IMG/VR virus record: IMGVR_UViG_2925903241_000001
Coordinates: 1-19,439 of that record
Reading direction: 5' to 3' (one strand)
Origin: a virus
Taxonomy: Duplodnaviria > Heunggongvirae > Uroviricota > Caudoviricetes
Length of the DNA stretch: 19,439 bases
Under the pieces are notes generated by a model, which was not told the DNA's origin, did not search any database, and saw only the letters and a program-made list of their open reading frames with translations. Below are positions 1 to 17,283 of the stretch, piece by piece; the stretch's first letter is position 1; each line of letters opens with the position of its first letter. Made by a program: the position numbers and the translations under genes.

Positions 1-1011
1 TTATAACGTCACTCCGCCTTTTAGTGGATTCAGAGCGACGGCATTTTGCAGATAGTCAGGCGCAAGGTGCGCATAGGCCATCGTCTGCTGAATGCTCGCA
101 TGTCCCAGAATCTGTTGCAGTGCGATTATATTGCCCCCATTCATCATGAAATGGCTTGCGAATGTATGCCGCAGGATGTGGGTTGCCTGATTGGGTGGTA
201 TATCAGGTTTCACTCTGCGTAAAATCCCGCAAAATTTCTCATAATCAACTTTGAATAATTTGGCGCTGGCCTCCTCTTTAACTTTTTTCTCCAGTTCCTC
301 AGAAATCGGCACGGTTCGCTTTTTACCGTTTTTGGTTTTCAGGAAGGTAACCCTGCAATTTGTAATCTGTGCTGGTTTTAGCGTGGCAACTTCCGTCCAT
401 CTTCCTCCGGTGCTCAGACATAAAAGCGCGACAAGTAAGTCATCACCAGCCAAAACATTTAACAGTTTTTCGATTTCTGCTTTTTCCAGGAACGTCATTT
501 CAGGGTTGGCCTCCGCCAGTGGCGGCAGTCCGTGAATTGGGTGTTGCCCGGAAAATTCATCCAATTGAATTAATTTTGTGAACATGCCGGATAATCGGTA
601 CATGTCACGGTTTATCGTTGCGGCACTGATACCATCACGTAGTCGCATGGAACGATAATCCATCAAAGCCCTTTTGCTCATCCTGCTCACTGGTATATCA
701 CCTATGCCGCTGATGGTTTTGAGTAGATGATTAAACTCTTTTGTTCCATGCTCGTGGTTTTGCCCGTGATATTTCCACCAGATGTCCAGCAACTCACTCA
801 AAGTCCGGCGGTCTGCTCGCTGGCCTCCCCATTCTTTCTGACTGGCATTGGCGATTGTGTATCGCTCAAATGCTAGTGCTTCAGCTTTTCTTTCGAATTT
901 CCTGCGGATGCGTTTTCCGTCGCGACCGCGAGGTCTAATGTCCACTTCATAGCGACCATCATCGAGCTTCTTAATTGCCATAAGAAAGCCCTCCGGCGCT
1001 GTATTCACCAT
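1..1011 (-). CDS. int: P2-like phage integrase (tyrosine recombinase)
   Basis: 336-aa minus-strand ORF with stop at 1-3. Internal stretch MAIKKLDDGRYEVDIRP matches the P2 Int N-terminus as I recall it, so the true start may be the internal ATG near 981. C-terminal ...HxLRHTFAS...ILGH...YAH resembles the tyrosine-recombinase catalytic motifs. Sits at the prophage left end, transcribed leftward with the repressor as in P2. Confidence 0.9.
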   Translation of the reverse strand: MVNTAPEGFLMAIKKLDDGRYEVDIRPRGRDGKRIRRKFERKAEALAFERYTIANASQKEWGGQRADRRTLSELLDIWWKYHGQNHEHGTKEFNHLLKTISGIGDIPVSRMSKRALMDYRSMRLRDGISAATINRDMYRLSGMFTKLIQLDEFSGQHPIHGLPPLAEANPEMTFLEKAEIEKLLNVLAGDDLLVALLCLSTGGRWTEVATLKPAQITNCRVTFLKTKNGKKRTVPISEELEKKVKEEASAKLFKVDYEKFCGILRRVKPDIPPNQATHILRHTFASHFMMNGGNIIALQQILGHASIQQTMAYAHLAPDYLQNAVALNPLKGGVTL

Positions 1012-1050
1012 CTTGGTAGCAAATGGTGAAAATGTAATCTTTATATAGAG

Positions 1051-1344
1051 TTAGCCAATCCTTTTCGCGGAGTGGTTGGACTCTGTTGACTCTGGCCCAA
1101 TGTGCGCGAGAGCCGGTGCGATTTGTCCTGCGTCCGGCGCGGTTTTATCTGTCATAAGCCATAGAGCATATTTTTGGAATGTGGGATGCATAGTGATTTT
1201 TAGCAAAGCTGTGCCACCGGGTTCAAAGTTTCCTCCTTCATATTTTTTAAGTGTGCTTAGCGGTAACTCTATGATTTCACAGAATTTTGATTGGCTTAGC
1301 CCTTCAGCCTCACGCAAGGCCTTAATCTTTTCGCTTAATTTCAT
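1051..1344 (-). CDS. P2 C-like immunity repressor (small HTH protein)
   Basis: 97-aa ORF directly upstream of int on the same strand. C-terminal GQIAPALAH motif is shared with P2 C as I recall it. The N-terminus differs from P2 C, suggesting a different immunity type. Confidence 0.75.
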   Translation of the reverse strand: MKLSEKIKALREAEGLSQSKFCEIIELPLSTLKKYEGGNFEPGGTALLKITMHPTFQKYALWLMTDKTAPDAGQIAPALAHIGPESTESNHSAKRIG

Positions 1345-1465
1345 TTGACATGGTGCCTATATAGGGACTAAATCCCCTCAAAACTGGAACCTATATAGGT
1401 TCCATTGATTTGAGAATAAACCAGCATCTAAACGGTTTTGAGTGGTTTAGAAAGGGCTGGATCCT
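1345..1465. promoter_or_regulatory. Divergent early promoter/operator switch region between the repressor and cox
   Basis: 121-bp intergenic region between divergently oriented genes. Contains TTGACA at 1345-1350 abutting the repressor start codon, the palindrome CCTATATAGG at 1356-1365, and a perfect 18-bp palindrome GGAACCTATATAGGTTCC at 1387-1404. Exact -10/-35 assignment is not resolved by eye. Confidence 0.5.
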
Positions 1466-1480
1466 ATGAGGGTACCATAT

Positions 1481-1753
1481 ATGGACGCTGAAAATTATGT
1501 GATTCAGTATCCGCTTGATGCGGTTCATGTGGATAAATTTGCTGATTTATTAGGGAAGCCAAAGACAGCCGTCAGTGAAATGGTGAAGGCAAATAAATTA
1601 CCAATTATTGAATTGCGTGATCCTTGCAAACCGAAGGCTCGTGCCGGTGAAAAATGGGTTTTCATTCCTGAGTTTAATCGCGCTGTACGTGAGGCGTTTT
1701 ATAACCGACCGGTTGAACAGCGTGATGCATGGCTTTTGTGGATGGGGTTGTGA
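1481..1753 (+). CDS. cox: Cox-like excisionase / early regulator
   Basis: First rightward gene after the switch region. The ORF track starts at 1466, but the ATG at 1481 has a GAGGG Shine-Dalgarno about 9 nt upstream and gives 90 aa, close to P2 Cox. Product has the pattern ...GKLP.I...AG..WV..P.. ending ...WLLWMGL, similar to P2 Cox ...WLMWLGL from memory. Confidence 0.6.
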   Translation: MDAENYVIQYPLDAVHVDKFADLLGKPKTAVSEMVKANKLPIIELRDPCKPKARAGEKWVFIPEFNRAVREAFYNRPVEQRDAWLLWMGL

Positions 1754-1755
1754 TT

Positions 1756-1926
1756 ATGAATGAGCCGCGTTGTATTGCTCAGTTATTGCGTAACGAAAGC
1801 CCCAGGGCGATTGACTTCACCATCACCCACGGTAAGGGGCGTAAGGGAATCATTATCCGCACCAAAAAACAGAGTCCGTTAAAAAAGGCTCTGACCTTTC
1901 TGAAAAGCCGGAGGGTATGGAAATGA
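1756..1926 (+). CDS. Small hypothetical early protein (position of P2 orf78)
   Basis: ORF track gives 1729..1926; the ATG at 1756 (MNEPRCIAQLL...) avoids overlap with cox. Assignment is positional only. Confidence 0.35.
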   Translation: MNEPRCIAQLLRNESPRAIDFTITHGKGRKGIIIRTKKQSPLKKALTFLKSRRVWK

Positions 1927-2423
1927 CAGTGATGACGCTCAATCTCGTTGAAAAACAGCCAGCAGCTATGCGCCGGATAATTGGCAAGCATCTTGCCGTC
2001 CCTCGCTGGCAGGATACATGTGATTATTATAATCAGATGATGGAGCGCGAACGGCTAACGGTTTGCTTTCATGCACAGTTAAAACAGCGTCACGCAACGA
2101 TGCGTTTTGAAGAAATGAACGACGTCGAACGTGAACGACTGGTTTGTGCAATTGATGAATTGCGTGGCGCATTCTCAAAACGCCGTCAGGTCGGCGCAAG
2201 TGAGTATGCATATATTAGTTTTTTAACAGTCAGTCAGCGTCGTACTTTATTTATGCATGCGGGATTGACAGAAAAAGAATTCAATCAGCCGTACTGGCGA
2301 ATTAATGAAGAATCATGTTACTGGCGTGATGCTTTATTCCGTGCATTACGTGAATTATTCAGTCTGTTTGAGTATGCACCGACAATTCTGACGTCGGTAA
2401 AACCAGAGCAATATCTGCATTAA
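1917..2423 (+). CDS. P2 gpB-like early replication protein (tentative)
   Basis: 168-aa ORF at the position and size of P2 gene B (about 166 aa from memory) between cox and the small orf80-83-like genes. Based on synteny and size, not sequence recall. Confidence 0.5.
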   Translation: MEMTVMTLNLVEKQPAAMRRIIGKHLAVPRWQDTCDYYNQMMERERLTVCFHAQLKQRHATMRFEEMNDVERERLVCAIDELRGAFSKRRQVGASEYAYISFLTVSQRRTLFMHAGLTEKEFNQPYWRINEESCYWRDALFRALRELFSLFEYAPTILTSVKPEQYLH

Positions 2424-2486
2424 ATAATTAACCAGAGTTTTTAACGCACTTAATCGTGCGGGGCTTCTTTTTGCCTGGAGAAAGTC

Positions 2487-2711
2487 ATGCATACAGTTTC
2501 TGAAAATCAGTGCGGTAAATACGCATTACTGCTGCAACAGGCCAGAACCGAAGCACAGGCCGACGCTGCGACGCGCTTTTCTTCTCATCTTGACGCCATG
2601 ATTCGCCACATCACAAAGGCGGAGTTATCCCGCGTGGAGATAGTTGAGCTGCTCAGTCAGGAGTCGGAAAAATTTCACAATATCGGATTGTCTCGCGGGG
2701 AGGTGCTTTGA
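2487..2711 (+). CDS. Hypothetical early protein (P2 orf80 position)
   Basis: 74-aa ORF; its stop overlaps the next start (ATGA), indicating translational coupling within the early operon. Confidence 0.5.
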
Positions 2712-3013
2712 TGTCCTGTTCTCGTTCGGTTGTATTACTGAATAACGCCTTAAAAATCGCCGTTATGAAAAATGGTGATTTGTCTCTTATTCAACTTGGT
2801 ATTGATAAAGAGAAGCGCGAAATAACTGAATCTGTTATCGCGATTTATCAGAGTGAATTAAACCTCCTGTCTGATGTGGTCAATTTACTTGTTAAACGCG
2901 CTGTATTCCACAAGCAAATTTCCTCAGTGGATGAACTGACAAAATTAACGACAGAACTCGCCAGTTATTGCGCTGATGAATTTAAGAAGCTGAACGACAA
3001 AAGGAGCTGGTAA
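2708..3013 (+). CDS. Hypothetical early protein, AT-rich (P2 orf81 position)
   Basis: 101-aa ORF, visibly AT-richer than its neighbours. Tightly packed with the flanking genes (ATGA overlap upstream, the next start abuts its stop). Confidence 0.5.
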
Positions 3014-3237
3014 TGCCGGACAACGTGGATTTTATTCAGGAACAACAGGCTGAATTACTGGAGCGCCAGATTAACGCGGCAAGGGTAAAACATTGCGGTG
3101 TTTCTGCGCTGGTTTGCGAAGAGTGTGACGCGCCAATACCTGCTGCCCGTCGTGCGGCTTATCCGTCAGCCACGCGTTGTGTTTCCTGTCAGTCAGTCTT
3201 TGAAGCAAAAAACAAACATTACCGGAGAACGGCATGA
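3013..3237 (+). CDS. TraR/DksA-family C4 zinc-finger protein (P2 orf82-like)
   Basis: 74-aa product with CxxC...CxxC arrangement (C-E-E-C ... C-V-S-C) typical of phage TraR/DksA-like zinc fingers. Confidence 0.7.
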   Translation: MPDNVDFIQEQQAELLERQINAARVKHCGVSALVCEECDAPIPAARRAAYPSATRCVSCQSVFEAKNKHYRRTA

Positions 3238-3509
3238 GTATTCGTATTGAAATTGGCGAACGTTATGTCGTTACCAGTGACAGCTTTCAGTTTATTCTCC
3301 ACGAGAAAAAGAGAGCGGAAAGCGGTAAAAACGCCGGTCAGGAATGGCTGGCGGTGGTTGGTTATTACCCGAAATTAGGCCAGCTCGTTTCCGGCCTGAT
3401 GCATCACGATATTCTGACCGGAAGCGCAAAATCTTTTGCTGATTTAAACGCGCAGGTTGAGCAACTCAGCAAGCGTTGTTCAGAGGCTTTTGGCTCATAT
3501 GGCCGTTAA
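3234..3509 (+). CDS. Hypothetical early protein (P2 orf83 position)
   Basis: 91-aa ORF; its stop at 3507-3509 overlaps the A start codon at 3499. Confidence 0.55.
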   Translation: MSIRIEIGERYVVTSDSFQFILHEKKRAESGKNAGQEWLAVVGYYPKLGQLVSGLMHHDILTGSAKSFADLNAQVEQLSKRCSEAFGSYGR

Positions 3510-4869
3510 AGCCTCCGGGCGTTTTGTCCCTCCGTCAGCATTTACCGCAGGCACCGGTAAGGCGTTTACCGGTGCTTATGCATGGAACGCGCCACGCGAG
3601 GCTGTCGGGCGCGAAAGACCTCTTACACGTGACGAGATGCGTCAGGTGCAAGGTGTTTTATCCACGATTAACCGCCTGCCTTACTTTTTGCGCTCGCTGT
3701 TTACTTCACGCTATGACTACATCCGGCGCAATAAAAGCCCGGTGCACGGGTTTTATTTCCTCACATCTACTTTTCAGCGTCGTTTATGGCCGCGCATTGA
3801 GCGTGTGAATCAGCGCCATGAAATGAACACCGACGCGTCGTTGCTGTTTCTGGCAGAGCGTGACCACTATGCGCGCCTGCCGGGAATGAATGACAAGGAG
3901 CTGAAAAAGTTTGCCGCCCGTATCTCATCGCAGCTTTTCATGATGTATGAGGAACTCTGCGATGCATGGGTTGATGCGCATGGTGAAAAAGAATCGCTGT
4001 TTACGGATGAGGCGCAGGCTCACCTGTATGGTCATGTTGCTGGCGCTGCACGTGCTTTCAATATTTCCCCGCTCTACTGGAAAAAATACCGTAAAGGACA
4101 GATGACCACGAGGCAGGCATATTCTGCCATTGCCCGCCTGTTTAACGATGAGTGGTGGACTCATCAGCTTAAAGGCCAGCGTATGCGCTGGCATGAGGCG
4201 TTACTGATAGCTGTCGGGGAGGTCAATAAAGACCGTTCTCCTTATGCCAGTAAACACGCCATTCGTGATGTGCGTGCGCGCCGCCAGGCAAATCTGGAAT
4301 TTCTTAAATCGTGTGACCTTGAAAACAGGGAAACCGGCGAGCGCATCGACCTTATCAGTAAGGTGATGGGCAGTATTTCTAATCCTGAAATTCGCCGGAT
4401 GGAGCTGATGAACACCATTGCCGGTATTGAGCGTTACGCCGCCGCAGAGGGTGATGTGGGGATGTTTATCACGCTGACCGCGCCGTCAAAGTATCACCCG
4501 ACACGTCAGGTCGGAAAAGGCGAAAGTAAAACCGTTCAGCTTAATCACGGCTGGAACGATGAGGCATTTAATCCAAAGGATGCGCAGCGTTATCTCTGCC
4601 GTATCTGGAGCCTGATGCGCACGGCATTCAAGGATAATGATTTACAGGTCTACGGTTTGCGAGTCGTCGAGCCACACCACGACGGAACGCCGCACTGGCA
4701 TATGATGCTTTTTTGTCATCCACGCCAGCGTAACCAGATTATCGAAATCATGCGTCGCTATGCGCTCAAAGAGGATGGCGACGAAAGAGGTGCGTATTTT
4801 CATGAAAGGAGATCACTCAATAACTTCCATCGAGATCGGGTAATAACATTTGAACAGATCGCTGAATAA
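3499..4869 (+). pseudogene. A: Replication initiation endonuclease gpA (rolling-circle HUH nickase), 3' truncated by IS21-family insertion
   Basis: Likely start at MAVKASGRFVPP (3499), which is the P2 gpA N-terminus as I recall it. Phage-derived coding runs to about 4790 (roughly 431 codons, versus about 761 aa for P2 gpA). The final 25 codons of the ORF (...AYFHERRSLNNFHRDRVITFEQIAE) read into the IS terminal repeat. HUH motif PHWHMM is retained near aa 405-410. Confidence 0.85.
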
Positions 4870-4983
4870 CATCGATGGAGATCACTTTTGACTCATTTTG
4901 TTATTCAGTGATCTCCATCAATGTTATTGGAACTTCACAGGTGTGTTGATCTGTATCTTTTGCCATTCCGGTAAAGGATACCT

Positions 4984-6525
4984 ATGCCAACAGTTCCAAT
5001 TTCTATGAGAAAACTTAAAGAAATTCTTAGGCTTAAATACGGTGTTGGACTCAGCCATCGACAAATTGGTCGTAGTCTTGCAATCTCCCCTTCCGTTGTA
5101 TCCAGATATGCTAATCGGGCGGCTCAACTTGGCATAAAGCAGTGGCCCTTACCTACAGGATGGGATGATACAAAACTAAAACATGCGTTCCTTCAGACCC
5201 AGGTTAAGATGAAGAAGCACTCTCTGCCTGACTGGGCTACAGTACACCGGGAACTGCGTAATAAATGCGTGACGCTGCAGCTACTCTGGGAAGAATACTG
5301 TGAGCGTAATCCAGGCGGTTTTTACAGCTATAACCATTACTGCCGGATGTACCGTGAATGGCTCAAAACCACTTCACCATCAATGCGTCAGGTACATAAA
5401 GCTGGCGAAAAACTTTTCGTTGATTACTGTGGACCTACCGTTGGCGTTACCGACCCTGAGACCGGAGAAATAAGAACTGCTCAGGTCATCGTAGCTGTTC
5501 TCGGGGCATCAAGTTACACATGGGCAGAGGCCACCTGGTCTCAGCAGCTTGAAGACTGGGTGATGAGTCATGTTCGCTGCTTCCAGTGGTTGGGTGGCGT
5601 TCCTGAACTTGTTGTTCCGGACAATCTGAAAAGCGCCACATCCAGGGCATGTAAGTATGATCCTGACGTTAACCCTACCTACCAGCAGATGCTTGAGCAT
5701 TATAATGTCGCAGTTTTGCCTGCGCGGCCACGTAAACCGAAAGATAAAGCCAAAGCTGAAGTTGGCGTTCAGGTTGTTGAACGCTGGATCATGGCCCGAA
5801 TCAGGCATGAGATCTTCTACAGCCTTGCATCGCTTAATCAGCGCATTCGGGAGTTGCTGGAAAGACTGAATAACAAAATAATGCAGAAGTTGGGTTATTC
5901 ACGTGCAGAACTCTTCATCCAGCTTGATAAACCCGCACTGAAGCCTCTTCCTGAAGCCAGTTACAGTTACACCCTGGTGAAGAAAGTCAGAGTTCATGCC
6001 GATTACCACGTGGAAATCGACAAACATTACTACTCGGTTCCATGTTCGCTGTTAGGCCAGCAACTGGAAGCATGGATCTCCGGAGAACTGGTAAGACTCT
6101 TCAATCAGGGGCAGGAGGTTGCTGTGCACCCGCGCAAGCGTACTTATGGCTACAGTACCCGCAACGAGCACATGCCTGAAGCTCATCGACAGCATGCCAC
6201 CTGGACGCCAGAGCGTCTTCTGGAATGGGCGGGGCACATAGGCAGTGAAACTCATAGTTATGTGCTTCATATACTGAACTCTCGTCCACATCCGGAACAA
6301 AGCTATCGCTTCTGCCTTGGACTCCTGAACCTTCATAAAAAATACAGTAAAGCCAGACTTAATGCAGCATGTGCAAGAGCTCTGGAAACAAAGGTATGGC
6401 GTCTGTCAGGTATTAAATCGATCCTGGAAAAAGGTCTGGATAAACAACCTGTTCAGGATCCAAAACCAGATCTGTTATCCACGATGGAACACGAAAACGT
6501 ACGCGGCAGTGAGTATTACCACTGA
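4984..6525 (+). CDS. istA: IS21-family transposase IstA
   Basis: 513-aa ORF with N-terminal HTH-like region (LSHRQIGRSLAISPSVVSRYANRA) and a central integrase-type core, immediately followed by istB. Shine-Dalgarno AGGATA upstream. Confidence 0.9.
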   Translation: MPTVPISMRKLKEILRLKYGVGLSHRQIGRSLAISPSVVSRYANRAAQLGIKQWPLPTGWDDTKLKHAFLQTQVKMKKHSLPDWATVHRELRNKCVTLQLLWEEYCERNPGGFYSYNHYCRMYREWLKTTSPSMRQVHKAGEKLFVDYCGPTVGVTDPETGEIRTAQVIVAVLGASSYTWAEATWSQQLEDWVMSHVRCFQWLGGVPELVVPDNLKSATSRACKYDPDVNPTYQQMLEHYNVAVLPARPRKPKDKAKAEVGVQVVERWIMARIRHEIFYSLASLNQRIRELLERLNNKIMQKLGYSRAELFIQLDKPALKPLPEASYSYTLVKKVRVHADYHVEIDKHYYSVPCSLLGQQLEAWISGELVRLFNQGQEVAVHPRKRTYGYSTRNEHMPEAHRQHATWTPERLLEWAGHIGSETHSYVLHILNSRPHPEQSYRFCLGLLNLHKKYSKARLNAACARALETKVWRLSGIKSILEKGLDKQPVQDPKPDLLSTMEHENVRGSEYYH

Positions 6526-6536
6526 TACGGGATCCA

Positions 6537-7286
6537 ATGATGAATCATCTTTACGAACAACTGACCGCACTTAAACTCACCGGCTTCCGTGATGCGCTTA
6601 AAAAGCAACTTGCTCAACCGGGCACATACCAGGAGCTGGGCTTCGAAGAACGCCTGTCATTACTGACAGCAGAAGAACTAACCTGCCGTGAAAACAGGAA
6701 GGCAGAGCGTCTGATCAAACATGCACGGTTCAGACTTAATGCTGAGTTATCAAAGCTGGATTATCGTAACAATAGAGGGCTGGACAGGGCCCTCATCCGT
6801 TCACTCAGTCAGGGAAACTGGTTAACCCTGAAACAAAATATTTTACTGACCGGGGCCACCGGCAGCGGTAAAACGTTCCTGGCATGTGCACTTGGTCATA
6901 ATGCCTGCCGACAGGGATACAAGGTCTACTATTATCGCCTTAAAGCGCTGATGGAACAGTGCTATCAGGGGCATGCTGATGGAAGATACAGCAAACTTTT
7001 GACCAGGCTGAATAATAGCGATCTGCTGCTTCTGGATGACTGGGGGCTGGAACCTCTCTCATCAGAACAGCGTAGCGACCTGCTGGAAATAGTGGATCTG
7101 ATGTACCAACGAGGCTCAATCATCGTAGTGAGCCAGTTGCCGGTGGAAAACTGGTACAAAATGATCGGAGACTCCACACATGCGGATGCCATCCTAGATC
7201 GACTGGTTCATGGCAGTATCAAGATCGAACTTAAAGGAGAATCAATGCGGAAAATACAATCTCCGTTGACCGAAGGAGATCAGTGA
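6537..7286 (+). CDS. istB: IS21-family ATP-binding helper protein IstB
   Basis: 249-aa ORF with Walker A GATGSGKT and Walker B-like LLLLDDWG, 11 bp downstream of istA. Confidence 0.9.
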   Translation: MMNHLYEQLTALKLTGFRDALKKQLAQPGTYQELGFEERLSLLTAEELTCRENRKAERLIKHARFRLNAELSKLDYRNNRGLDRALIRSLSQGNWLTLKQNILLTGATGSGKTFLACALGHNACRQGYKVYYYRLKALMEQCYQGHADGRYSKLLTRLNNSDLLLLDDWGLEPLSSEQRSDLLEIVDLMYQRGSIIVVSQLPVENWYKMIGDSTHADAILDRLVHGSIKIELKGESMRKIQSPLTEGDQ

Positions 7287-7411
7287 AGGTAATTTAAAAA
7301 CGGTTCTGTGAAAGTGACACGAACCGATCTCCATCGATGTTACTCACCGATCTCCTTCACGGTAATACGCAAAGGCCACGGAACAGGCACACCAACGGGT
7401 AATACAGAGCC

Positions 7412-7437
7412 TTCTCCCAAACCAACGTTTATGAAAA
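7412..7437. other. Orphan gix/hix/pix-like invertase crossover site
   Basis: TTCTCCCAAACC-AA-CGTTTATGAAAA: a 26-bp imperfect palindrome (half-sites match 8/12 in inverse orientation) with central AA dinucleotide and AAACC..GGTTT-type core, resembling hixL and gix sites as I recall them. Lies 56 bp upstream of the invertase start, as in Gin/Hin systems. No partner site found in the window. Confidence 0.6.
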
Positions 7438-7517
7438 TGCAGAGATAACGGGCAAGTGGCATCATCTCCGGTTTTTATTCAGGGGGATGCTCATGCTTAT
7501 TGGCTATGTACGCGTGT

Positions 7518-7525
7518 CAACAAAT
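7518..7525. repeat. IS66 target-site duplication, left copy (CAACAAAT)
   Basis: 8-bp direct repeat immediately flanking the IS66-family left end; identical copy at 9981-9988. Confidence 0.9.
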
Positions 7526-7606
7526 GTAAGCGTCGTCTCAGCACCGTCTGGCAGATCCTGAAATTCCTGAGAGAATAGTGGACACCAAATATGGTGGACG
7601 CAATCC

Positions 7607-8011
7607 ATGAAATCATTAACCGCAGTGCGTAAAAAAAGCCCTAATTATCCCGTTGAGTTCAAAATCAAAATGGTTGAACTCTCGCATCGACCAGAGATCT
7701 CCGTAGCGCAACTCGCTCGTGAGCATGGGATCAACGATAATTTGCTGTTCAAGTGGCGCCAGTACTGGCGCGAAGGAAAACTACGTCCTCCTTCAACAAC
7801 AGAAAACAACGTGCCTGAGCTGCTCCCGATAACACTTGATGCCGAAGATGTTGTCCCTACAACCTCCCCCCGGTCACAACCTGTAGCTGCTGCGACACCT
7901 GAATCACTCAATATCAGCTGTGAAGTGACGTTCCGGCACGGATCACTCCGTCTGAATGGTGCCATCAGCGAAAATATCCTGAACCTGCTGATACGGGAGC
8001 TCAAACGTTGA
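7607..8011 (+). CDS. tnpA: IS66-family accessory protein TnpA (orfA)
   Basis: 134-aa ORF, first gene of the IS66 module; stop overlaps the tnpB start. Confidence 0.8.
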   Translation: MKSLTAVRKKSPNYPVEFKIKMVELSHRPEISVAQLAREHGINDNLLFKWRQYWREGKLRPPSTTENNVPELLPITLDAEDVVPTTSPRSQPVAAATPESLNISCEVTFRHGSLRLNGAISENILNLLIRELKR

Positions 8012-8355
8012 TCCCATTACCATCAGGGACAAAGATCTGGCTGGTCGCTGGCATCACCGATATGAGAAACGGCTTCAACGGCCTGGCGGCAAAGGTGCAG
8101 ACGACGCTGAAAGACGATCCGATGTCAGGTCACGTTTTTATCTTCCGTGGGCGTAATGGCAGTCAGGTAAAGCTCCTCTGGTCTACCGGCGATGGACTGT
8201 GTCTGCTGACCAAACGGCTGGAGCGCGGCCGCTTCGCCTGGCCGTCAGCCCGGGATGGCAAAGTGTTCCTCACACCGGCACAGCTGGCGATGCTGCTGGA
8301 AGGTATCGACTGGCGGCAGCCTAAAAGACTGCTTACGTCCCTGACTATGTTGTAA
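8008..8355 (+). CDS. tnpB: IS66-family accessory protein TnpB (orfB)
   Basis: 115-aa ORF MIPLPSGTKIWLVAGITDMR..., the conserved IS66 orfB-type protein by recall. Confidence 0.85.
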   Translation: MIPLPSGTKIWLVAGITDMRNGFNGLAAKVQTTLKDDPMSGHVFIFRGRNGSQVKLLWSTGDGLCLLTKRLERGRFAWPSARDGKVFLTPAQLAMLLEGIDWRQPKRLLTSLTML

Positions 8356-8403
8356 GCCTCTTTATCCTGGTCGACGCTGAATGAGCCTGGTAATATACCC
8401 GGT

Positions 8404-9939
8404 ATGAGCAGCTCACTTCCTGACGATATCAATGCACTGAAACGTCTCCTTGCCGAACAGGAGGCGCTGAACCGTGCCCTGCAGGAAAAGCTGAACGAGC
8501 GTGAACGCGAAATAGACCATCTGCAGGCACAGCTGGATAAGCTGCGCCGGATGAACTTCGGCAGCCGCTCGGAAAAAGTCTCCCGTCGTATCGCACAGAT
8601 GGAAGCTGACCTGAAGGCACTTCAGAAAGAAAGTGATACCCTTACCGGTCGGGTTGACGACCCGGCCGTGCAGCGCCCGCTGCGTCAAACCCGCACCCGC
8701 AAACCGTTCCCCGAATCACTCCCCCGCGATGAAAAACGGCTGCTGCCGGCAGCGTCATGCTGCCCGGAATGTGGAGGCTCGCTGAGCTATCTGGGTGAGG
8801 ATGCCGCCGAACAGCTGGAGCTGATGCGCAGCGCCTTCCGGGTTATCCGGACTGTACGTGAAAAGCATGCCTGTACTCAGTGCGATGCCATCGTGCAGGC
8901 CCCCGCGCCTTCACGGCCCATCGAGCGGGGTATCGCAGGACCGGGGCTGCTGGCCCGCGTGCTGATCTCAAAGTATGCAGAGCACACCCCGCTGTACCGC
9001 CAGTCTGAAATGTACGGCCGCCAGGGCGTGGAGCTGAGTCGTTCACTGCTGTCGGGCTGGGTGGATGCATGCTGCCGGCTACTGTCACCGCTGGAAGAAG
9101 CGCTTCAGGACTATGTGCTGACTGACGGTAAGCTCCATGCTGATGACACGCCTGTCCCGGTGCTGTTGCCAGGCAATAAGAAAACGAAGACCGGGCGGTT
9201 ATGGACCTACGTTCGTGACGACCGTAACGCCGGGTCAACGCTGGCGCCGGCGGTGTGGTTCGCTTACAGCCCGGACAGAAAAGGCATCCATCCGCAGACC
9301 CATCTTGCGGGGTTCAGTGGTGTACTGCAGGCGGATGCATACGCCGGGTTCAACGAGCTGTACCGGGATGGCCGGATAACGGAAGCCGCCTGTTGGGCTC
9401 ACGCCCGCCGTAAAATCCACGATGTGCACGTTCGCACCCCGTCAGCCCTGACGGAGGAAGCGCTGAAACGGATCGGCGAACTGTACGCCATCGAGGCAGA
9501 GATAAGGGGAATGACGGCGGAGCAGCGCCTTGCCGAACGTCAGTTGAAAACGAAACCGCTGCTGAAATCCCTGGAAAGCTGGCTGCGTGAAAAGATGAAA
9601 ACCCTGTCGCGACACTCAGAACTGGCGAAAGCGTTCGCATACGCCCTGAACCAGTGGCCGGCGCTGACGTACTATGCAGATGATGGCTGGGCTGAGGCGG
9701 ACAATAACATCGCTGAAAATGCGTTGCGGATGGTCAGTCTGGGCCGCAAAAACTACCTGTTCTTCGGTTCGGATCATGGAGGAGAGCGGGGAGCGCTGCT
9801 GTACAGCCTGATCGGGACGTGCAAACTGAACGGAGTGGAGCCAGAAAGCTACCTCCGCTATGTCCTTGACGTCATAGCCGACTGGCCGATAAACCGGGTC
9901 GGCGAACTGCTCCCCCTGGCGCGTAGCACTGCCGACTGA
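8404..9939 (+). CDS. tnpC: IS66-family transposase TnpC
   Basis: 511-aa ORF with N-terminal leucine-zipper/coiled-coil, a CxxC...CxxC zinc-finger region (CPECGG ... CTQCD) and a C-terminal DDE-type region, typical of IS66 transposases. Confidence 0.9.
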
Positions 9940-9980
9940 ATAACACATCCCCGTCAATACGGTTCTTGCTGCACGCTTAC

Positions 9981-9988
9981 CAACAAAT
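9981..9988. repeat. IS66 target-site duplication, right copy (CAACAAAT)
   Basis: Identical to 7518-7525; immediately follows the IS66 right terminus. Confidence 0.9.
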
Positions 9989-10608
9989 GACCAGAACACG
10001 GAATTGCAGCGTAACGCGCTGGAGTGCGCAGGATGTGAGCTGATTTTTGAGGATAAAATCAGCGGCACGAAGTCCGACAGGCCGGGGCTGAAAAAACTGC
10101 TCAGAACATTATCGGAAGGTGACACTCTGGTAGTCTGGAAGCTGGACCGGCTGGGGCGTAGTATGCGGCATCTGGTCATTCTGGTTGAGGAGCTGCGCGA
10201 ACGCGGCATTAATTTTCGCAGCCTGACGGATGCCATTGATACCAGCACGCCGATGGGGCGTTTTTTCTTTCATGTGATGGGTGCCCTGGCTGAAATGGAG
10301 CGAGAACTCATTGTCGAGCGGACACGCGCCGGACTGGAGGCGGCCAGAGCCAAAGGTCGTATTGGTGGCAGACGTCCGAAACTCACCGCGAGTGAGTGGG
10401 AGCAGGCCGGGCGGTTGCTGGCTGCAGGGGAATCACGTCAACGCGTGGCACTGATTTTTGATATTGGCCTGTCCACGCTCTATAAAAAATTCCCCGCCTC
10501 AGTGACAAAAAATAAATTGTGTCATCCCTTAGCCAACCGGGACAAATAGCCTGACATCTCCGGCACAACTAAAAATATCACTCACCCATTAACCACGGAG
10601 TTAAACGG

Positions 10609-11799
10609 ATGAGTGACTATCATCACGGCGTGCAGGTGCTGGAGATTAACGACGGCACCCGCGTCATTTCCACCGTATCCACTGCCATTGTCGGCATGGT
10701 CTGCACGGCCAGCGATGCGGATGCGGAAACCTTCCCCCTCAATAAACCGGTGCTGATTACCAATGTGCAGAGCGCAATTGCAAAGGCTGGTAAAAAAGGC
10801 ACGCTGGCGGCGTCGTTACAGGCCATCGCCGACCAGTCAAAACCGGTCACCGTTGTCGTGCGTGTGGAAGACGGCACCGGTGACGACGAGGAAACGAAAC
10901 TCGCGCAGACCGTTTCCAATATCATCGGCACCACCGACGAAAACGGTCAGTACACCGGACTGAAAGCCCTGCTGGCGGCGGAGTCGGTAACCGGTGTTAA
11001 GCCGCGCATTCTCGGTGTGCCGGGACTGGACACCAAAGAGGTTGCCGTCGCACTGGCATCAGTCTGTCAGAAGCTGCGCGCTTTCGGGTATATCAGCGCA
11101 TGGGGCTGTAAAACCATTTCCGAGGTGAAAGCCTACCGCCAGAATTTCAGCCAGCGTGAGCTGATGGTCATCTGGCCGGATTTCCTCGCATGGGATACGG
11201 TCACCAGTACCACCGCCACCGCGTATGCCACCGCCCGTGCGCTGGGTCTGCGCGCTAAAATCGACCAGGAGCAGGGCTGGCATAAAACACTGTCCAACGT
11301 TGGGGTGAACGGTGTTACCGGCATCAGCGCATCTGTATTCTGGGATTTGCAGGAGTCCGGCACCGATGCTGACCTGCTGAATGAGTCAGGCGTCACAACG
11401 CTGATTCGCCGTGACGGTTTCCGCTTCTGGGGTAACCGTACCTGCTCTGATGACCCGCTGTTCCTCTTTGAAAACTACACCCGCACCGCGCAGGTGCTGG
11501 CCGACACGATGGCTGAGGCGCACATGTGGGCGGTGGACAAGCCCATCACCGCAACGCTGATTCGCGACATCGTTGATGGCATCAATGCCAAATTCCGAGA
11601 GCTGAAAACAAACGGCTATATCGTGGATGGCACATGCTGGTTCAGCGAAGAATCCAACGATGCGGAAACCCTCAAGGCCGGAAAACTGTATATCGACTAC
11701 GACTATACACCGGTGCCTCCTCTCGAAAACCTGACCCTGCGCCAGCGTATTACCGATAAATACCTGGCAAATCTGGTCACCTCGGTTAACAGCAATTAA
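10609..11799 (+). CDS. FI: Contractile tail sheath protein gpFI
   Basis: 396-aa ORF beginning MSDYHHGVQVLEINDGTRVISTVSTAIVGMV..., matching P2 FI in length and in sequence as far as I can recall. GGAG Shine-Dalgarno upstream. Confidence 0.93.
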   Translation: MSDYHHGVQVLEINDGTRVISTVSTAIVGMVCTASDADAETFPLNKPVLITNVQSAIAKAGKKGTLAASLQAIADQSKPVTVVVRVEDGTGDDEETKLAQTVSNIIGTTDENGQYTGLKALLAAESVTGVKPRILGVPGLDTKEVAVALASVCQKLRAFGYISAWGCKTISEVKAYRQNFSQRELMVIWPDFLAWDTVTSTTATAYATARALGLRAKIDQEQGWHKTLSNVGVNGVTGISASVFWDLQESGTDADLLNESGVTTLIRRDGFRFWGNRTCSDDPLFLFENYTRTAQVLADTMAEAHMWAVDKPITATLIRDIVDGINAKFRELKTNGYIVDGTCWFSEESNDAETLKAGKLYIDYDYTPVPPLENLTLRQRITDKYLANLVTSVNSN

Positions 11800-11811
11800 G
11801 GAGCCTGACCG

Positions 11812-12330
11812 ATGGCAATGCCGCGCAAACTCAAGTTAATGAACGTCTTTCTGAACGGCTACAGCTATCAGGGCGTTGCAAAGTCCGTCACGCTGCCAAA
11901 ACTGACCCGTAAGCTCGAAAACTATCGCGGTGCGGGAATGAACGGCAGCGCACCGGTAGACCTCGGCCTTGATGACGATGCGCTGTCAATGGAGTGGTCG
12001 CTCGGGGGCTTCCCGGATTCGGTTATCTGGGAGCTTTACGCCGCAACCGGTGTGGATGCTGTGCCGATTCGTTTTGCAGGCTCTTACCAGCGTGACGATA
12101 CCGGCGAAACGGTGGCCGTCGAGGTGGTCATGCGTGGACGTCAGAAAGAAATCGACACCGGCGAGGGTAAACAGGGAGAAGACACTGAGTCGAAAATCTC
12201 CGTGGTCTGCACCTATTTCCGGCTGACGATGGACGGTAAGGAGCTGGTCGAAATCGACACCATCAACATGATTGAGAAGGTGAACGGCGTCGACCGGCTG
12301 GAGCAACACCGCCGCAATATCGGCCTGTGA
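11812..12330 (+). CDS. FII: Tail tube protein gpFII
   Basis: 172-aa ORF immediately after FI; same length as P2 FII (from memory) and in the conserved order. Confidence 0.9.
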   Translation: MAMPRKLKLMNVFLNGYSYQGVAKSVTLPKLTRKLENYRGAGMNGSAPVDLGLDDDALSMEWSLGGFPDSVIWELYAATGVDAVPIRFAGSYQRDDTGETVAVEVVMRGRQKEIDTGEGKQGEDTESKISVVCTYFRLTMDGKELVEIDTINMIEKVNGVDRLEQHRRNIGL

Positions 12331-12386
12331 TTTTCATCCGGTCAGCCTGGCTGACCGGTTAACCCCGATTCATAAGTGAGAAAACC

Positions 12387-12662
12387 ATGAACAAAGAAAA
12401 TGTGATTACCCTGGACAATCCGGTCAAACGTGGTGAGCAGGTTATCGAACAGGTCACGCTGATGAAACCCAGTGCCGGGACGCTGCGCGGTGTCAGTCTG
12501 GCAGCGGTCGCAAACTCCGAAGTCGATGCACTGATTAAGGTGTTGCCGCGCATGACGGCACCGATGCTGACCGAGCAGGAAGTCGCCGCACTGGAACTGC
12601 CTGACCTTGTGGCGCTGGCCGGTAAGGTGGTCGGTTTTTTGTCGCCGAACTCGGTGCAGTGA
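12387..12662 (+). CDS. E: Tail assembly chaperone gpE
   Basis: 91-aa ORF between FII and T, same length as P2 E; contains the slippery heptamer T-TTT-TTG near its 3' end. Confidence 0.88.
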   Translation: MNKENVITLDNPVKRGEQVIEQVTLMKPSAGTLRGVSLAAVANSEVDALIKVLPRMTAPMLTEQEVAALELPDLVALAGKVVGFLSPNSVQ

Positions 12663-12814
12663 CGTTTCCGAAAAATCTCTCGGTCGATGACCTGATGGCG
12701 GATGTGGCAGTGATATTTCACTGGCCGCCATCAGAACTGTATCCCATGAGCCTGACCGAACTCATCACATGGCGCGAAAAGGCGCTCCGGCGAAGCGGAA
12801 ACACGAATGAGTAA
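12387..12814 (+). CDS. Tail assembly chaperone gpE+E' produced by programmed -1 frameshift
   Basis: Slippery site T TTT TTG at 12635-12641 in the E frame. The -1 frame from 12641 is open to TAA at 12812-14 and encodes VAELGAVTFPKNLSVDDLMADVAVIFHWPPSELYPMSLTELITWREKALRRSGNTNE. Fusion is 85 + 57 = 142 aa, equal to the P2 E+E' size as I recall. Stop overlaps the T start. Confidence 0.8.
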
Positions 12815-15254
12815 CAATGTAAAATTACAGGTATTGCTCAGGGCTGTTGACCAGGCATCCCGTCCGTTTAAATCCATCCGCACAGCGAGCAAATCGCTGT
12901 CGGGGGATATCCGGGAAACACAAAAATCACTGCGCGAGCTGAACGGTCAGGCATCCCGTATTGAGGGATTTCGCAAGACCAGTGCACAGCTCGCCGTGAC
13001 TGGTCATGCACTTGAAAAGGCACGGCAGGAGGCCGAAGCCCTTGCCACACAGTTTAAAAACACCGAACGTCCGACACGTGCTCAGGCGAAAGTGCTGGAA
13101 TCCGCGAAGCGTGCGGCGGAGGACTTACAGGCGAAATATAACCGCCTGACGGATTCCGTTAAACGCCAGCAGCGGGAACTGGCCGCTGTGGGAATTAATA
13201 CCCGCAATCTTGCACATGATGAGCAGGGACTGAAAAACCGTATCAGTGAAACCACCGCACAGCTTAACCGTCAGCGTGATGCGCTGGCGCGTGTCAGTGC
13301 GCAACAGGCAAAACTTAACGCAGTCAAACAGCGTTATCAGGCCGGAAAGGAACTGGCCGGAAATATAGCCTCAGTGGGCGCTGCCGGTGTGGGGATTGCG
13401 GCGGCGGGAACGATGGCCGGAGTTAAGCTGCTGATGCCCGGTTATGAGTTTGAGCAGAAAAACTCAGAATTGCAGGCCGTGCTCGGAGTGGCAAAAGACT
13501 CCGCCGAAATGACCGCACTCCGCAAGCAGGCGCGCCAGCTTGGCGACAACACCGCCGCCTCGGCGGATGATGCAGCCGGTGCGCAGATTATCATTGCGAA
13601 AGCCGGCGGGGATGTTGATGCCATTCAGGCGGCAACGCCGGTCACGCTGAATATGGCGCTGGCGAACCGTCGCACGATGGAAGAAAACGCCGCCCTGTTG
13701 ATGGGGATGAAATCCGCCTTTCAGCTTTCAAACGATAAGGTCGCTCATATCGGGGATGTTCTCTCCATGACGATGAACAAAACCGCCGCCGATTTTGACG
13801 GCATGAGCGATGCGCTGACCTATGCCGCACCTGTGGCAAAAAATGCCGGTGTCAGCATTGAAGAAACCGCCGCAATGGTCGGGGCACTGCATGATGCAAA
13901 AATTACCGGTTCAATGGCGGGGACGGGAAGCCGTGCCGTGTTAAGCCGCCTGCAGGCACCGACGGGAAAAGCATGGGATGCACTGAAAGAGCTTGGTGTG
14001 AAAACCTCAGACAGCAAGGGAAACACCCGACCAGTATTTACCATTCTGAAAGAAATGCAGGCCAGTTTTGAGAAAAACCGGCTCGGTACTGCCCAGCAGG
14101 CTGAATACATGAAAACTATTTTCGGGGAGGAGGCCAGCTCAGCCGCCGCCGTGCTGATGACTGCCGCCTCAACCGGAAAGCTGGACAAACTGACCGCTGC
14201 GTTTAAAGCCTCAGACGGGAAGACCGCCGAGCTGGTAAATATCATGCAGGACAACCTCGGCGGTGACTTTAAGGAGTTTCAGTCTGCTTATGAGGCGGTG
14301 GGGACTGACCTGTTTGACCAGCAGGAAGGCGCACTGCGTAATCTCACGCAGACGGCCACAAAGTATGTGTTAAAACTCGACGGCTGGATCAAGAAAAACA
14401 AATCACTGGCGTCAACCATCGGCCTCATTGTCGGTGGCGCACTGGCGCTTACTGGCATCATCGGTGCCATTGGTCTTGTCGCCTGGCCGGTTATCACCGG
14501 CATCAATGCCATCATCGCGGCAGCAGGCGCAATGGGGGCAGTCTTCACGACGGTTGGCAGTGCTGTTATGACCGCCATCGGGGCTATTAGCTGGCCGGTT
14601 GTGGCCGTGGTGGCCGCAATTGTCGCCGGGGCGTTGCTTATCCGTAAATACTGGGAGCCTGTCAGCGCATTCTTTGGCGGTGTGGTTGAAGGGCTGAAAG
14701 TGGCATTTGCGCCGGTGGGGGAACTGTTCACGCCACTTAAGCCGGTGTTTGACTGGCTGGGTGAAAAGTTACAGGCCGCGTGGCAGTGGTTTAAAAACCT
14801 GATTGCCCCGGTCAAAGCCACTCAGGACACCCTGAACCGTTGCCGTGACACGGGGGTCATGTTCGGGCAGGCACTGGCTGACGCGCTGATGCTGCCGCTT
14901 AATGCGTTCAACAAACTGCGCAGTGGTATTGACTGGGTACTGGAAAAACTCGGTGTTATCAACAAAGAGTCAGACACACTTGACCAGACCGCCGCCAGAA
15001 CTCAAGCCGCCACGTATGGCCGCGGTGGTTATATTCCGGCGACCAGCTCTTATGCAGGTTATCAGGCTTATCAGCCGGTCACGGCACCGGCTGGCCGCTC
15101 TTATGTAGACCAGAGTAAAAACGAATATCACATCAGCCTGACGGGTGGTACTGCGCCGGGGACACAGCTCGACCGCCAGTTACAGGATGCGCTCGAAAAA
15201 TACGAGCGGGATAAACGTGCGCGCGCCCGTGCCAGCATGATGCATGACGGTTAA
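12807..15254 (+). CDS. T: Tail tape measure protein gpT
   Basis: 815-aa ORF (P2 T is 815 aa from memory) with coiled-coil N-terminal region and hydrophobic Gly/Ala-rich segments typical of tape measure proteins; directly follows E/E'. Confidence 0.93.
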   Translation: MSNNVKLQVLLRAVDQASRPFKSIRTASKSLSGDIRETQKSLRELNGQASRIEGFRKTSAQLAVTGHALEKARQEAEALATQFKNTERPTRAQAKVLESAKRAAEDLQAKYNRLTDSVKRQQRELAAVGINTRNLAHDEQGLKNRISETTAQLNRQRDALARVSAQQAKLNAVKQRYQAGKELAGNIASVGAAGVGIAAAGTMAGVKLLMPGYEFEQKNSELQAVLGVAKDSAEMTALRKQARQLGDNTAASADDAAGAQIIIAKAGGDVDAIQAATPVTLNMALANRRTMEENAALLMGMKSAFQLSNDKVAHIGDVLSMTMNKTAADFDGMSDALTYAAPVAKNAGVSIEETAAMVGALHDAKITGSMAGTGSRAVLSRLQAPTGKAWDALKELGVKTSDSKGNTRPVFTILKEMQASFEKNRLGTAQQAEYMKTIFGEEASSAAAVLMTAASTGKLDKLTAAFKASDGKTAELVNIMQDNLGGDFKEFQSAYEAVGTDLFDQQEGALRNLTQTATKYVLKLDGWIKKNKSLASTIGLIVGGALALTGIIGAIGLVAWPVITGINAIIAAAGAMGAVFTTVGSAVMTAIGAISWPVVAVVAAIVAGALLIRKYWEPVSAFFGGVVEGLKVAFAPVGELFTPLKPVFDWLGEKLQAAWQWFKNLIAPVKATQDTLNRCRDTGVMFGQALADALMLPLNAFNKLRSGIDWVLEKLGVINKESDTLDQTAARTQAATYGRGGYIPATSSYAGYQAYQPVTAPAGRSYVDQSKNEYHISLTGGTAPGTQLDRQLQDALEKYERDKRARARASMMHDG

Positions 15255-15268
15255 GGAGGTGACGAAAA

Positions 15269-15748
15269 ATGATGCTCGCGTTAGGTATGTTTGTTTTTAT
15301 GCGCCAGACGCTGCCACACCAGACCATGCAGCGTGAATCAGATTATCGCTGGCCGTCAAATTCCCGTATCGGTAAACGGGACGCTTTTCAGTTTCTCGGT
15401 GTGGGTGAGGAAAACATCACGCTTGCCGGTGTGCTTTATCCCGAACTGACCGGCGGCAAGCTGACGATGACCACGCTCAGGCTGATGGCAGAGGAGGGGC
15501 GGGCGTGGCCGTTGCTGGATGGCACCGGCATGATTTACGGCATGTATGTCATCAGCAAGGTGAGTGAAACAGGGAGTATTTTCTTTGCAGACGGCACACC
15601 CCGGAAAATTGATTTTACGCTGTCGCTCACCCGCGTTGATGAATCACTGGCCGCGCTTTATGGCGATATCGGTAAACAGGCGGAATCGCTCATCGGTAAG
15701 GCTGGCAGTATGGCGACTAAATTCACGGGTATGACGGGGGCGGGATAA
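15269..15748 (+). CDS. U: Tail protein gpU
   Basis: 159-aa ORF after T, same size and position as P2 U; GGAGG Shine-Dalgarno upstream. Confidence 0.9.
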   Translation: MMLALGMFVFMRQTLPHQTMQRESDYRWPSNSRIGKRDAFQFLGVGEENITLAGVLYPELTGGKLTMTTLRLMAEEGRAWPLLDGTGMIYGMYVISKVSETGSIFFADGTPRKIDFTLSLTRVDESLAALYGDIGKQAESLIGKAGSMATKFTGMTGAG

Positions 15749-16911: not shown

Positions 16912-16992
16912 TGTTTTTATTTTATCTGTTTGTTTTATAAGGATAAATTAACTAAAATGGCACCATCAACAAAACCGGAAGAGGTGCTCGCG

Positions 16993-17211: not shown

Positions 17212-17220
17212 TTACAAACA

Positions 17221-17236
17221 GAAAGCCCCTCAGTCG
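17221..17236 (+). terminator. ogr rho-independent terminator, split by IS150 (left arm here; right arm and T-tract at 18683-18698)
   Basis: Removing IS150 and one TCG copy reconstitutes GAAAGCCCCTC-AGTC-GAGGGGCTTTC followed by TGTTTTGG: an 11-bp perfect stem, 4-nt loop and T-rich tail, immediately 3' of ogr. Confidence 0.75.
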
Positions 17237-17283
17237 TGTACTGCACCCATTTTGTTGGACGATGAAATGGAATAGCCCCTAAT

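Follow-up and report, generated by a model that had tools for sequence, protein, structure and literature searches.

How an insertion sequence (IS) came to connect two distant parts of a prophage is the question raised by the stretch of DNA analysed here (19,439 nucleotides; hereafter the window). The DNA belongs to a P2-like prophage that occupies the cpxP-fieF site of an E. coli clone, presumably ST167 to judge by strain names. An IS21-family element interrupts replication gene A and its right end lies 40 bp from a tail-fibre inversion site. The original prediction, made from the letters alone, described both junctions in these terms. It attributed them to an adjacent deletion or to recombination between two IS copies and not to a simple insertion. 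Comparison with sister genomes agrees with that reading and takes it further: the window almost certainly carries a deletion anchored at the IS end and derived from a simple insertion. The features concerned are collected in Table 1.

Table 1 Features at and around the two IS junctions of the window; L004 is an undeleted sister prophage
Feature	Position in window	Strand	Basis or detail
5' fragment of P2-type replication gene A	3499–4790	+	codons 1–430 plus 2 nt; Pfam Phage_GPA
AGAGG, left copy of the 5-bp target duplication from the original ISEc12 insertion	4786–4790		
ISEc12 (IS21 family), complete	4791–7371	+	2581 bp
istA, DDE transposase, 513 aa	4984–6525	+	Pfam rve and Mu-transpos_C_2; RefSeq WP_002431311.1
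istB, AAA+ helper ATPase, 248 aa	6540–7286	+	Pfam IstB_IS21, E=2.2e-67; RefSeq WP_001016257.1
AAGGC, first bases of the new right flank	7372–7376		BLAST mapping and junction sequence; corresponds to L004 26173
40-bp remnant of the invertible tail-fibre segment	7372–7411	-	collinear with L004 26173–26212
Right crossover (cix/gix-like) site of tail-fibre inversion	7412–7437		sequence TTCTCCCAAACCAACGTTTATGAAAA
First 11 codons (MLIGYVRVSTN) of a Din-family serine invertase	7493–7525	+	sequence; downstream part matches Pfam Resolvase and HTH_7
ISEc22, 2455 bp, of the IS66 family; interrupts the invertase gene	7526–9980	+	Pfam HTH_Tnp_1, TnpB_IS66, DDE_Tnp_IS66
3' part of the invertase gene, without catalytic Ser9	9981–10549	+	translation; Pfam Resolvase

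The element is ISEc12. It is identical over all 2581 bp to the RefSeq-annotated copies, of which there are hundreds in E. coli, and shows no difference from the copies at sister loci. Matches to ISEc12 were found in 1908 of 5426 genomes, at a median of 3 places per genome. Assignment to the IS21 family agrees with the consecutive istA and istB genes identified by Pfam and with termini of the TG...CA type (TGCGTATT...AATACGCA). The element starts with TGCGTATTTTCATGAAAGGAGATC and finishes with GATCTCCTTCACGGTAATACGCA, which form imperfect terminal inverted repeats, and several GATCTCCATCGATGTTA-type repeats occupy the subterminal zones at both ends. Catalogued ISEc12 has the same sequence, gene layout and ends and creates 5-bp duplications, as in the tssM insertion of ST131 clade C (PMC10711316); such a duplication is shared with the ancestral state of the gene A insertion. 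Unlike catalogued ISEc12, the element in the window has lost the right copy of its duplication, together with 18.5 kb of adjoining DNA. The expected duplication is thus missing in the window but present in the ancestral state (AGAGG/AGAGG, 41 genomes), and its loss is explained by the later deletion, not by non-membership in the IS21 family.

With the start of gene A at position 3499, as given in RefSeq, the IS interrupts codon 431 of 759 after its second base, in agreement with the original prediction. RefSeq labels the fragment 'replication endonuclease, missing C-terminus'. Its match to Phage_GPA (E=3.7e-110) is cut off at profile position 289 of 321, and the catalytic tyrosines Y450 and Y454 are not included. 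Genome EJN001 carries the same cpxP-fieF prophage with an intact gene A (759 aa) and the empty site GACGAAAGAGGAGCC (state 0). In 41 genomes ISEc12 is a simple insertion at the identical base, with AGAGG on both sides and gene A continuing to the right (state 1). Of 5426 complete genomes, 71 contain the exact left junction, each time once and in the chromosome; these comprise the 41 simple insertions, 18 window-type genomes and further genomes in groups of 9, 1, 1 and 1.

Alignment to the undeleted sister prophage L004 locates both breakpoints. Window positions 1–7371 are identical to L004 250–7620, and positions 7372–19439 to L004 26173–38240; 18,552 bp are missing from the window and from every one of the 18 complete genomes with the same right junction. 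The earlier estimate of about 20 kb was close but somewhat too high. The 8-mers flanking the element, GAAAGAGG and AAGGCCAC, are as originally reported and do not match. Exact mapping of the IS termini in the window gave no direct repeat of 4–8 bp (AGAGG against AAGGC). The right copy of AGAGG went with the deletion, and we infer that AAGGC was the target pentamer of the deletion event.

The right breakpoint falls within the tail-fibre inversion region. The 40-bp remnant is the 5' part of an alternative tail-fibre C-terminal exon, annotated in RefSeq as 'phage tail protein, missing C-terminus'. The crossover sites of L004 form an inverted repeat pair (24259–24287 and 26213–26241), and the partner of the site retained in the window, 1.9 kb upstream in the undeleted sister, has been deleted. 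The sister prophage possesses both sites and the alternative fibre and assembly genes, and the segment is seen in both orientations. The window retains one site and an invertase gene split by ISEc22, and its inversion switch is therefore dead. The Resolvase match of the 3' invertase part covers profile positions 19–144 only. ISEc22 has ends GTAAGCG...CGCTTAC and an 8-bp duplication (CAACAAAT, at 7518–7525 and 9981–9988). It is found in states 0–4 of the locus and is older than the ISEc12 events.

The deletion in the window is one of a nested series. Other genomes with the identical left junction have endpoints at L004 24806 (9 genomes, 17,185 bp deleted), L004 19532 (1 genome, 11,911 bp) and L004 28815 (1 genome, 21,194 bp); one further genome with this junction has undergone a later rearrangement. 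All four deletions are one-sided; each begins precisely where the IS ends on the right, and in each case the IS is complete and free of differences. This is the form of an IS-mediated adjacent deletion, in which the left junction is unchanged from the simple insertion and the other has moved distally in the same orientation. Collinear flanks and junction searches indicate that the intervening DNA was lost rather than inverted or translocated. No junction between the IS right end and the 3' part of gene A was found in genomes with state-2 or state-3 junctions. Inversion or translocation was rejected on the collinear flanks and on finding neither a reciprocal nor a state-1 right junction in deleted genomes.

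The sister genomes show the following history. An ordinary insertion of ISEc12 in codon 431 of gene A, as preserved in the state-1 genomes, duplicated AGAGG. In a descendant, the right end of the IS was then joined to a point 18,552 bp downstream, 40 bp into the invertible segment, leaving the left junction and the IS untouched. What was lost comprises the 3' part of gene A, a helicase gene, every head, lysis and baseplate gene and most of the tail-fibre genes. We lean towards direct intramolecular transposition as the mechanism, without a second insertion followed by recombination. In the IS21-type reaction, a transient head-to-tail dimer would present an abutted, highly reactive IRR-IRL junction; attack by this junction on a neighbouring site of the same chromosome would, in the appropriate orientation, produce a deletion. 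The left IS copy would become connected to the distal side of the target, and the other copy would be released together with the intervening DNA in a circle unable to replicate. Loss of the 18.5 kb may have taken one step, or several via the shorter variants of the sister genomes. The shared regions are 100% identical and offer no local differences by which to order the deletion states, which may have arisen serially or independently.

This proposal draws on related systems. IS21-family elements are thought to use dimer or circle junctions and not Shapiro-type replicative transposition. In (IS21)2 of plasmid R68.45 and in (IS30)2, the reactive IRR-IRL junction drives replicon fusion, deletion and inversion. 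IS21 belongs to the same family as ISEc12, and the product expected from (IS21)2 has the form found in the window: a single IS remains, with its old flank at one end and a new target at the other. ISEc12 dimers, in head-to-tail arrangement with a 2-bp spacer (AC, GG), occur naturally in two genomes and agree with the 2–3 bp between IRR and IRL expected of the IS21 family; they count in favour of the direct route. They lie outside the state-1 genomes, in which none was seen, a point against it. The dimers formed by IS21 and IS30 stimulate deletion of adjacent DNA, and ISPve1, an IS21-family element of Paracoccus versutus, frequently produces one-sided deletions beside its insertion (PMC9330008). 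The ISPve1 deletions likewise form a nested series anchored at one IS end. They measure 0.5–4.5 kb and lie at the 5' (left) end in a trap plasmid, whereas those of ISEc12 measure 12–21 kb and lie at the right end in the chromosome. Experimental proof of dimer-junction deletion covers IS21, IS30 and ISPve1, and that ISEc12 is not among them counts against the direct route. A 2022 review calls the mechanism 'unclear' for IS21-family members other than IS21 itself. Adjacent deletions by IS1, IS26, Tn3 and Mu have the same outcome (exact terminus joined to a new target, no duplication), but their intramolecular replicative transposition is of a different chemistry and family.

The endpoints themselves are also informative. 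The 17.2-kb deletion ends at the pentamer GCCGG in a tail-fibre assembly gene. In an unrelated prophage, an independent, simple insertion of ISEc12 duplicated the homologous pentamer; this reuse is counted in favour of an endpoint chosen by the transposase. The deletions may be transposase-dependent and recA-independent, for which the GCCGG endpoint and the nested series give indirect support. Nine pentamers were compared (AGAGG, GCCGG, AGCGG, ACACG, ACGTA, CTCCC, CTACT, AAGGC and ACGCG); they yielded no convincing target consensus and one reused site only. The one-sidedness of the series is weak evidence for the direct route, since the dispensable prophage DNA on the left amounts to no more than about 5 kb.

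The main competitor is a possible but less probable route in which a second ISEc12, in direct orientation, entered at AAGGC close to the inversion site and the DNA between the copies was subsequently lost. The loss would occur by homologous recombination, or by transposase-mediated IRR-IRL joining and collapse of the resulting dimer. Such a route would produce the exact flanks observed, the left half-duplication from the first copy and the right from the second, and this identity of the final sequence is a point against the direct route. Further observations suit it: (i) ISEc12 is active and present in several copies in these genomes, at the median given above; (ii) its insertions recur in P2-like prophages, in gene A, in tail-fibre assembly genes and near lysB; (iii) an inversion with swapped flanks in strain EC29 records recombination between ISEc12 copies in the same clone; (iv) one of the dimers, in NRZ101541, lies at another gene A-to-invertase deletion in the same prophage, without duplication and between two unrelated flanks. 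That dimer could be a joined pair of separate copies, in which case two-copy routes operate too. The difficulty is that this route calls for four separate insertions, all in the same orientation and no more than 21 kb from one IS, in genomes that have few copies, and each insertion must have been followed by loss. The intermediate would have its second copy at ...GTGGCTGAAGGC|TGCGTATT and be diagnosed by the two-copy junction GTGTGGCTGAAGGC|TGCGTATTTTC. None of the 71 left-junction genomes keeps a two-copy state. When the junction lists for these 71 genomes were compared, in no genome did a deletion junction occur together with the state-1 right junction, and neither a two-copy intermediate nor a reciprocal product was seen. 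On balance, the data favour adjacent deletion over recombination between two IS copies.

Accounts that dispense with a deletion made by the IS are very improbable. A simple insertion, or a phage type in which gene A and the invertase are natural neighbours, would be suggested by the bare adjacency in the window only. The former is contradicted by AGAGG and AAGGC, which are no duplication, and the latter by the approximately 18.5 kb of collinear genes that separate the two regions in the undeleted sister and in P2-like phages. Equally remote is an assembly collapse across IS copies, which are classic sites of misassembly. It was rejected because the junction recurs in 18 independent complete genomes that differ in laboratory and host of origin. 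An IS-independent illegitimate deletion, falling at the IS terminus by chance, belongs with it: four different deletions begin precisely at the final base of the IS, and one ends at a pentamer that ISEc12 has targeted elsewhere.

The prophage resembles the P2-like (Peduovirus) prophages with a Din-type switch, with which it shares the order int-C-cox-B-A ... H-G-invertase-FI-FII-E-T-U-D-ogr. Its DNA is 96–97% identical to phages labelled P2 (strain T22) and pro483, and int, C, cox, A, FI, FII, T, U, D and ogr were identified by Pfam and from RefSeq annotation of sister loci. Unlike these prophages, the copy in the window is a defective remnant hit by three insertion sequences (ISEc12, ISEc22 and IS150) and without any head, lysis or baseplate genes. 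The defect is explained by the history given above: the active site of the replication nuclease is missing, as are the head, lysis, baseplate and fibre genes.

Both ISEc12 and IS-driven prophage decay of this sort are already known, ordinary and well understood, and the deletions described here leave current understanding unchallenged. Their main use lies in annotation and bookkeeping: they supply precise junction markers by which a clinically important E. coli clone can be subdivided. A bolder idea, which we consider unlikely, is that the repeated loss of lysis and virion genes is more than neutral decay, and that the right end of one ISEc12 copy is a recurrent, transposase-driven generator of dimer-junction deletions with sequence-preferred targets in P2 late genes, such as the reused GCCGG site in tail-fibre assembly genes, the products being selected. 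If true, selection in a multidrug-resistant clone would keep the immunity and integrase end of derivatives unable to kill their host, and the 71-genome series would be a natural experiment on IS21-family intramolecular transposition. As they stand, four nested deletions at one IS end together with natural dimers make a tidy natural data set, which supports the dimer-junction model of adjacent deletion for a member of the IS21 family besides IS21.

The insertion sequence that truncates gene A is a complete ISEc12, and its termini and full-length match fall exactly on the predicted limits (see table). Searched for identity and copies in 5426 complete E. coli genomes, ISEc12 had matches in 1908, the median number of places per genome being three. 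The copy in the window starts TGCGTATTTTCATGAAAGGAGATC and ends GATCTCCTTCACGGTAATACGCA; its termini are imperfect inverted repeats, and several subterminal repeats are also present. Gene A is interrupted after the second base of codon 431, counting from the RefSeq start. The uninterrupted homologue has 759 aa, and tyrosines 450 and 454, which we take to be the catalytic residues in P2, are both downstream of the break. On the other side, the inverted partner of the crossover site is found 1.9 kb upstream in the undeleted sister prophage. The IS is bordered by ...GAAAGAGG at its left end and by AAGGCCAC... at its right end, and no direct duplication of 4-8 bp was found in the flanks at the mapped termini. 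All elements of the original observation (a left end in gene A at about codon 431, a right end 40 bp from a tail-fibre inversion site and non-matching flanks) are confirmed.

Features of the window around the insertion sequences
Feature	Position	Details
P2-type replication gene A, 5' part	RefSeq start 3499	Pfam Phage_GPA, E=3.7e-110, truncated at profile position 289/321
ISEc12 (IS21 family), complete, 2581 bp	4791-7371	100% identity, full length, to RefSeq-annotated copies
IstA, 513 aa	within ISEc12	Pfam rve and Mu-transposase C domain
IstB, 248/249 aa	within ISEc12	IstB_IS21, E=2.2e-67
Invertible tail-fibre segment, 40 bp remaining	7372-7411	right flank of ISEc12
Crossover site TTCTCCCAAACCAACGTTTATGAAAA	7412-7437	directly after the 40-bp segment remnant
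Serine invertase, first 11 codons	7493-7525	after the crossover site
ISEc22 (IS66 family; tnpA/tnpB/tnpC)	7526-9980	8-bp duplication CAACAAAT at 7518-7525 and 9981-9988
IS150, 1443 bp	17237-18679	3-bp duplication TCG

The prophage is P2-like and integrated between cpxP and fieF, a site at which several states are known. In state 0 (e.g. EJN001) gene A is whole and the empty site reads GACGAAAGAGGAGCC. State 1 (41 genomes, among them AR435, M217, WCHEC005237 and Sanji) has ISEc12 at the identical base with AGAGG on both sides; gene A resumes at the right and the entire late region is kept. This 5-bp duplication has the length of that published for ISEc12, ACTGC in tssM of ST131 (PMC10711316). 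Comparison with the AR435 locus (L004) placed both breakpoints, at L004 7621 and 26173. Window 1-7371 is identical to L004 250-7620 and window 7372-19439 to L004 26173-38240; L004 7621-26172 (18,552 bp) is therefore missing. The large gap predicted between the breakpoints is real, but it measures 18.55 kb and not about 20 kb. The gap takes in the 3' end of gene A, a gene for a DEAD/DEAH helicase, the genes for portal, terminase, capsid, lysis and baseplate, tail-fibre gene H and the greater part of the invertible segment. The helicase-family gene (2.5 kb, L004 8853-11336), absent from the window, is encoded on the other strand of the undeleted prophage, with gene A and portal as its neighbours; it occupies the slot of old and tin in P2 and may therefore be anti-phage cargo.

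P2-like phages carry the deleted block in collinear order at 96-97% identity, so the invertase region does not naturally adjoin gene A. An assembly artefact is likewise rejected, since the right junction of the window is present in 18 complete genomes (human, dog and cat sources). At the sequence level, comparison of the states shows an insertion followed by loss anchored at the IS end. With AGAGG on both sides in state 1 and 18,552 bp gone from the window, the original reading of an IS-mediated adjacent deletion or two-copy recombination, not a simple insertion, is fully supported.

The loss in the window belongs to a nested series. A 240-bp probe spanning the left junction matched 71 genomes; in every one of them the match is 100% identical and lies on the chromosome as a single copy. 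The four deletion states all retain a complete IS with zero differences, and the loss begins at its last base. The shared regions are 100% identical, which is as compatible with independent origin of the four deletions from state 1 as with successive erosion.

States sharing the left ISEc12 junction
State	Genomes	Right flank begins	Right-flank sequence	Missing
State 1, simple insertion	41	L004 7621	gene A continues	nothing
State 4, strain 163	1	L004 19532 (CTACT)	lysB	11,911 bp
State 2, AR_0162 type	9	L004 24806 (GCCGG)	tail-fibre assembly gene	17,185 bp
State 3, window	18	L004 26173 (AAGGC)	invertible segment	18,552 bp
State 6, strain labelled 167 (CM132942)	1	L004 28815 (ACGCG) = window 10014	invertase 3' part	21,194 bp, ISEc22 included
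Rearranged, 11899A_LBHALD	1	not applicable	ISEc12 cut after 128 bp by another element	not applicable

The endpoint of the 17.2-kb deletion is the pentamer GCCGG (L004 24806-24810), about 60 bp into the tail-fibre assembly gene. PRO_A-1420, an unrelated genome with another P2-like prophage, has a simple ISEc12 insertion at the homologous position and in identical orientation, with GCCGG duplicated (L005 7015-7019 / 9601-9605). That the same pentamer is both a deletion endpoint and an independent insertion site points to an endpoint chosen by the transposase rather than by random breakage, and its double use suggests that GCCGG in P2-type tail-fibre assembly genes is a target hot spot for ISEc12. 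ISEc12 recurs within P2-like prophages of unrelated E. coli (L006, L007, L009, L013, L014, H272-H276), although this recurrence is not a measure of enrichment since the queries contained P2 sequence. The sites there are gene A (two other positions), tail-fibre assembly genes, beside the invertase and near lysB, with duplications AGCGG, ACACG and the 6-bp ATCAGA.

Other insertions mark the same prophage. ISEc22 splits the invertase gene after codon 11, removing catalytic Ser9; it is found in states 0 to 4 and is therefore older than the ISEc12 events. The 200-aa RefSeq 'recombinase family protein' begins inside the ISEc22 end, and this chimeric ORF is very probably inactive. The invertible segment has opposite orientations in AR435 and EJN001 (L004 24259-26241 vs L010 18421-19923) despite the same ISEc22-disrupted invertase in both, which implies inversion after the knock-out, presumably by a Din-family invertase acting in trans from another prophage. 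IS150 interrupts the loop of a hairpin with a perfect 16-bp stem (AAACAGAAAGCCCCTC / GAGGGGCTTTCTGTTT); this hairpin directly follows ogr and is probably its terminator. Between IS150 and fieF, at or beyond the prophage end, is a 213-aa ORF of low GC (about 38%; window 18798-19439) encoding hypothetical protein WP_000416606.1.

(IS)2 tandems of IS21 and IS30 give rise to adjacent deletions, their inner abutted ends attacking a target in cis, and ISPve1 of the IS21 family makes frequent one-sided deletions, whose generality across the family a recent review terms 'unclear' (PMC9330008). One-sided deletions are common to ISPve1 and the ISEc12 prophage series. The window fits this dimer model, and we infer such a route. 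The state-1 insertion would have made a transient dimer, the junction of which would attack AAGGC, 18.5 kb downstream; the distal side of the target would be joined to the left IS copy, and the intervening DNA would be lost as a circle with the second copy. We hold this direct intramolecular deletion by the dimer junction to be reasonably probable.

A second, direct-orientation insertion at AAGGC, with the two copies then joined by homologous recombination or transposase, would yield an identical product; we regard it as possible but rather doubtful. ISEc12 copies do recombine in the same clone, as EC29 (L008 10020-12600, L012 10001-12581) carries a large chromosomal inversion between the gene-A ISEc12, here with the 17.2-kb deletion, and an oppositely oriented copy within an Ag43/AIDA-type autotransporter gene, with flanks exchanged (AGAGG...CTCCC and CTCCC...GCCGG). 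However, the two-step route requires ISEc12 to have inserted four times in the same orientation within 21 kb of a single IS despite few copies per genome, and none of the four insertions survives as an intermediate. No genome with a deletion junction also has the state-1 right junction, and comparison of right-junction lists revealed no two-copy intermediate or reciprocal product in the collection.

Head-to-tail dimers were found in two genomes, strain 4/1-1 (L015 2220-7383) and NRZ101541 (L016 2220-7383), with a probe joining the last 300 bp of ISEc12 to the first 300 bp. The spacers, AC and GG respectively, are the two bases expected after the right terminal repeat of the left copy (the first two of that copy's duplication). 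The strain 4/1-1 dimer is flanked by the duplication ACGTA. That of NRZ101541 belongs to the cpxP-fieF prophage described here, in a lineage that lacks IS150, with the IS in opposite orientation. It is flanked on one side by about the first 520 bp of gene A and on the other by about the last 480 bp of the invertase gene, and has no duplication. The gene A-to-invertase region was thus lost here independently, again in connection with ISEc12. In favour of the two-step route, this dimer may itself have arisen by the joining of two copies.

The element is thus ISEc12, its host is a P2-like prophage of the ordinary kind, and what happened is textbook IS-mediated adjacent deletion: a real finding, but an ordinary one. 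It adds, modestly, a natural nested deletion series, together with natural dimers, for a member of the IS21 family.
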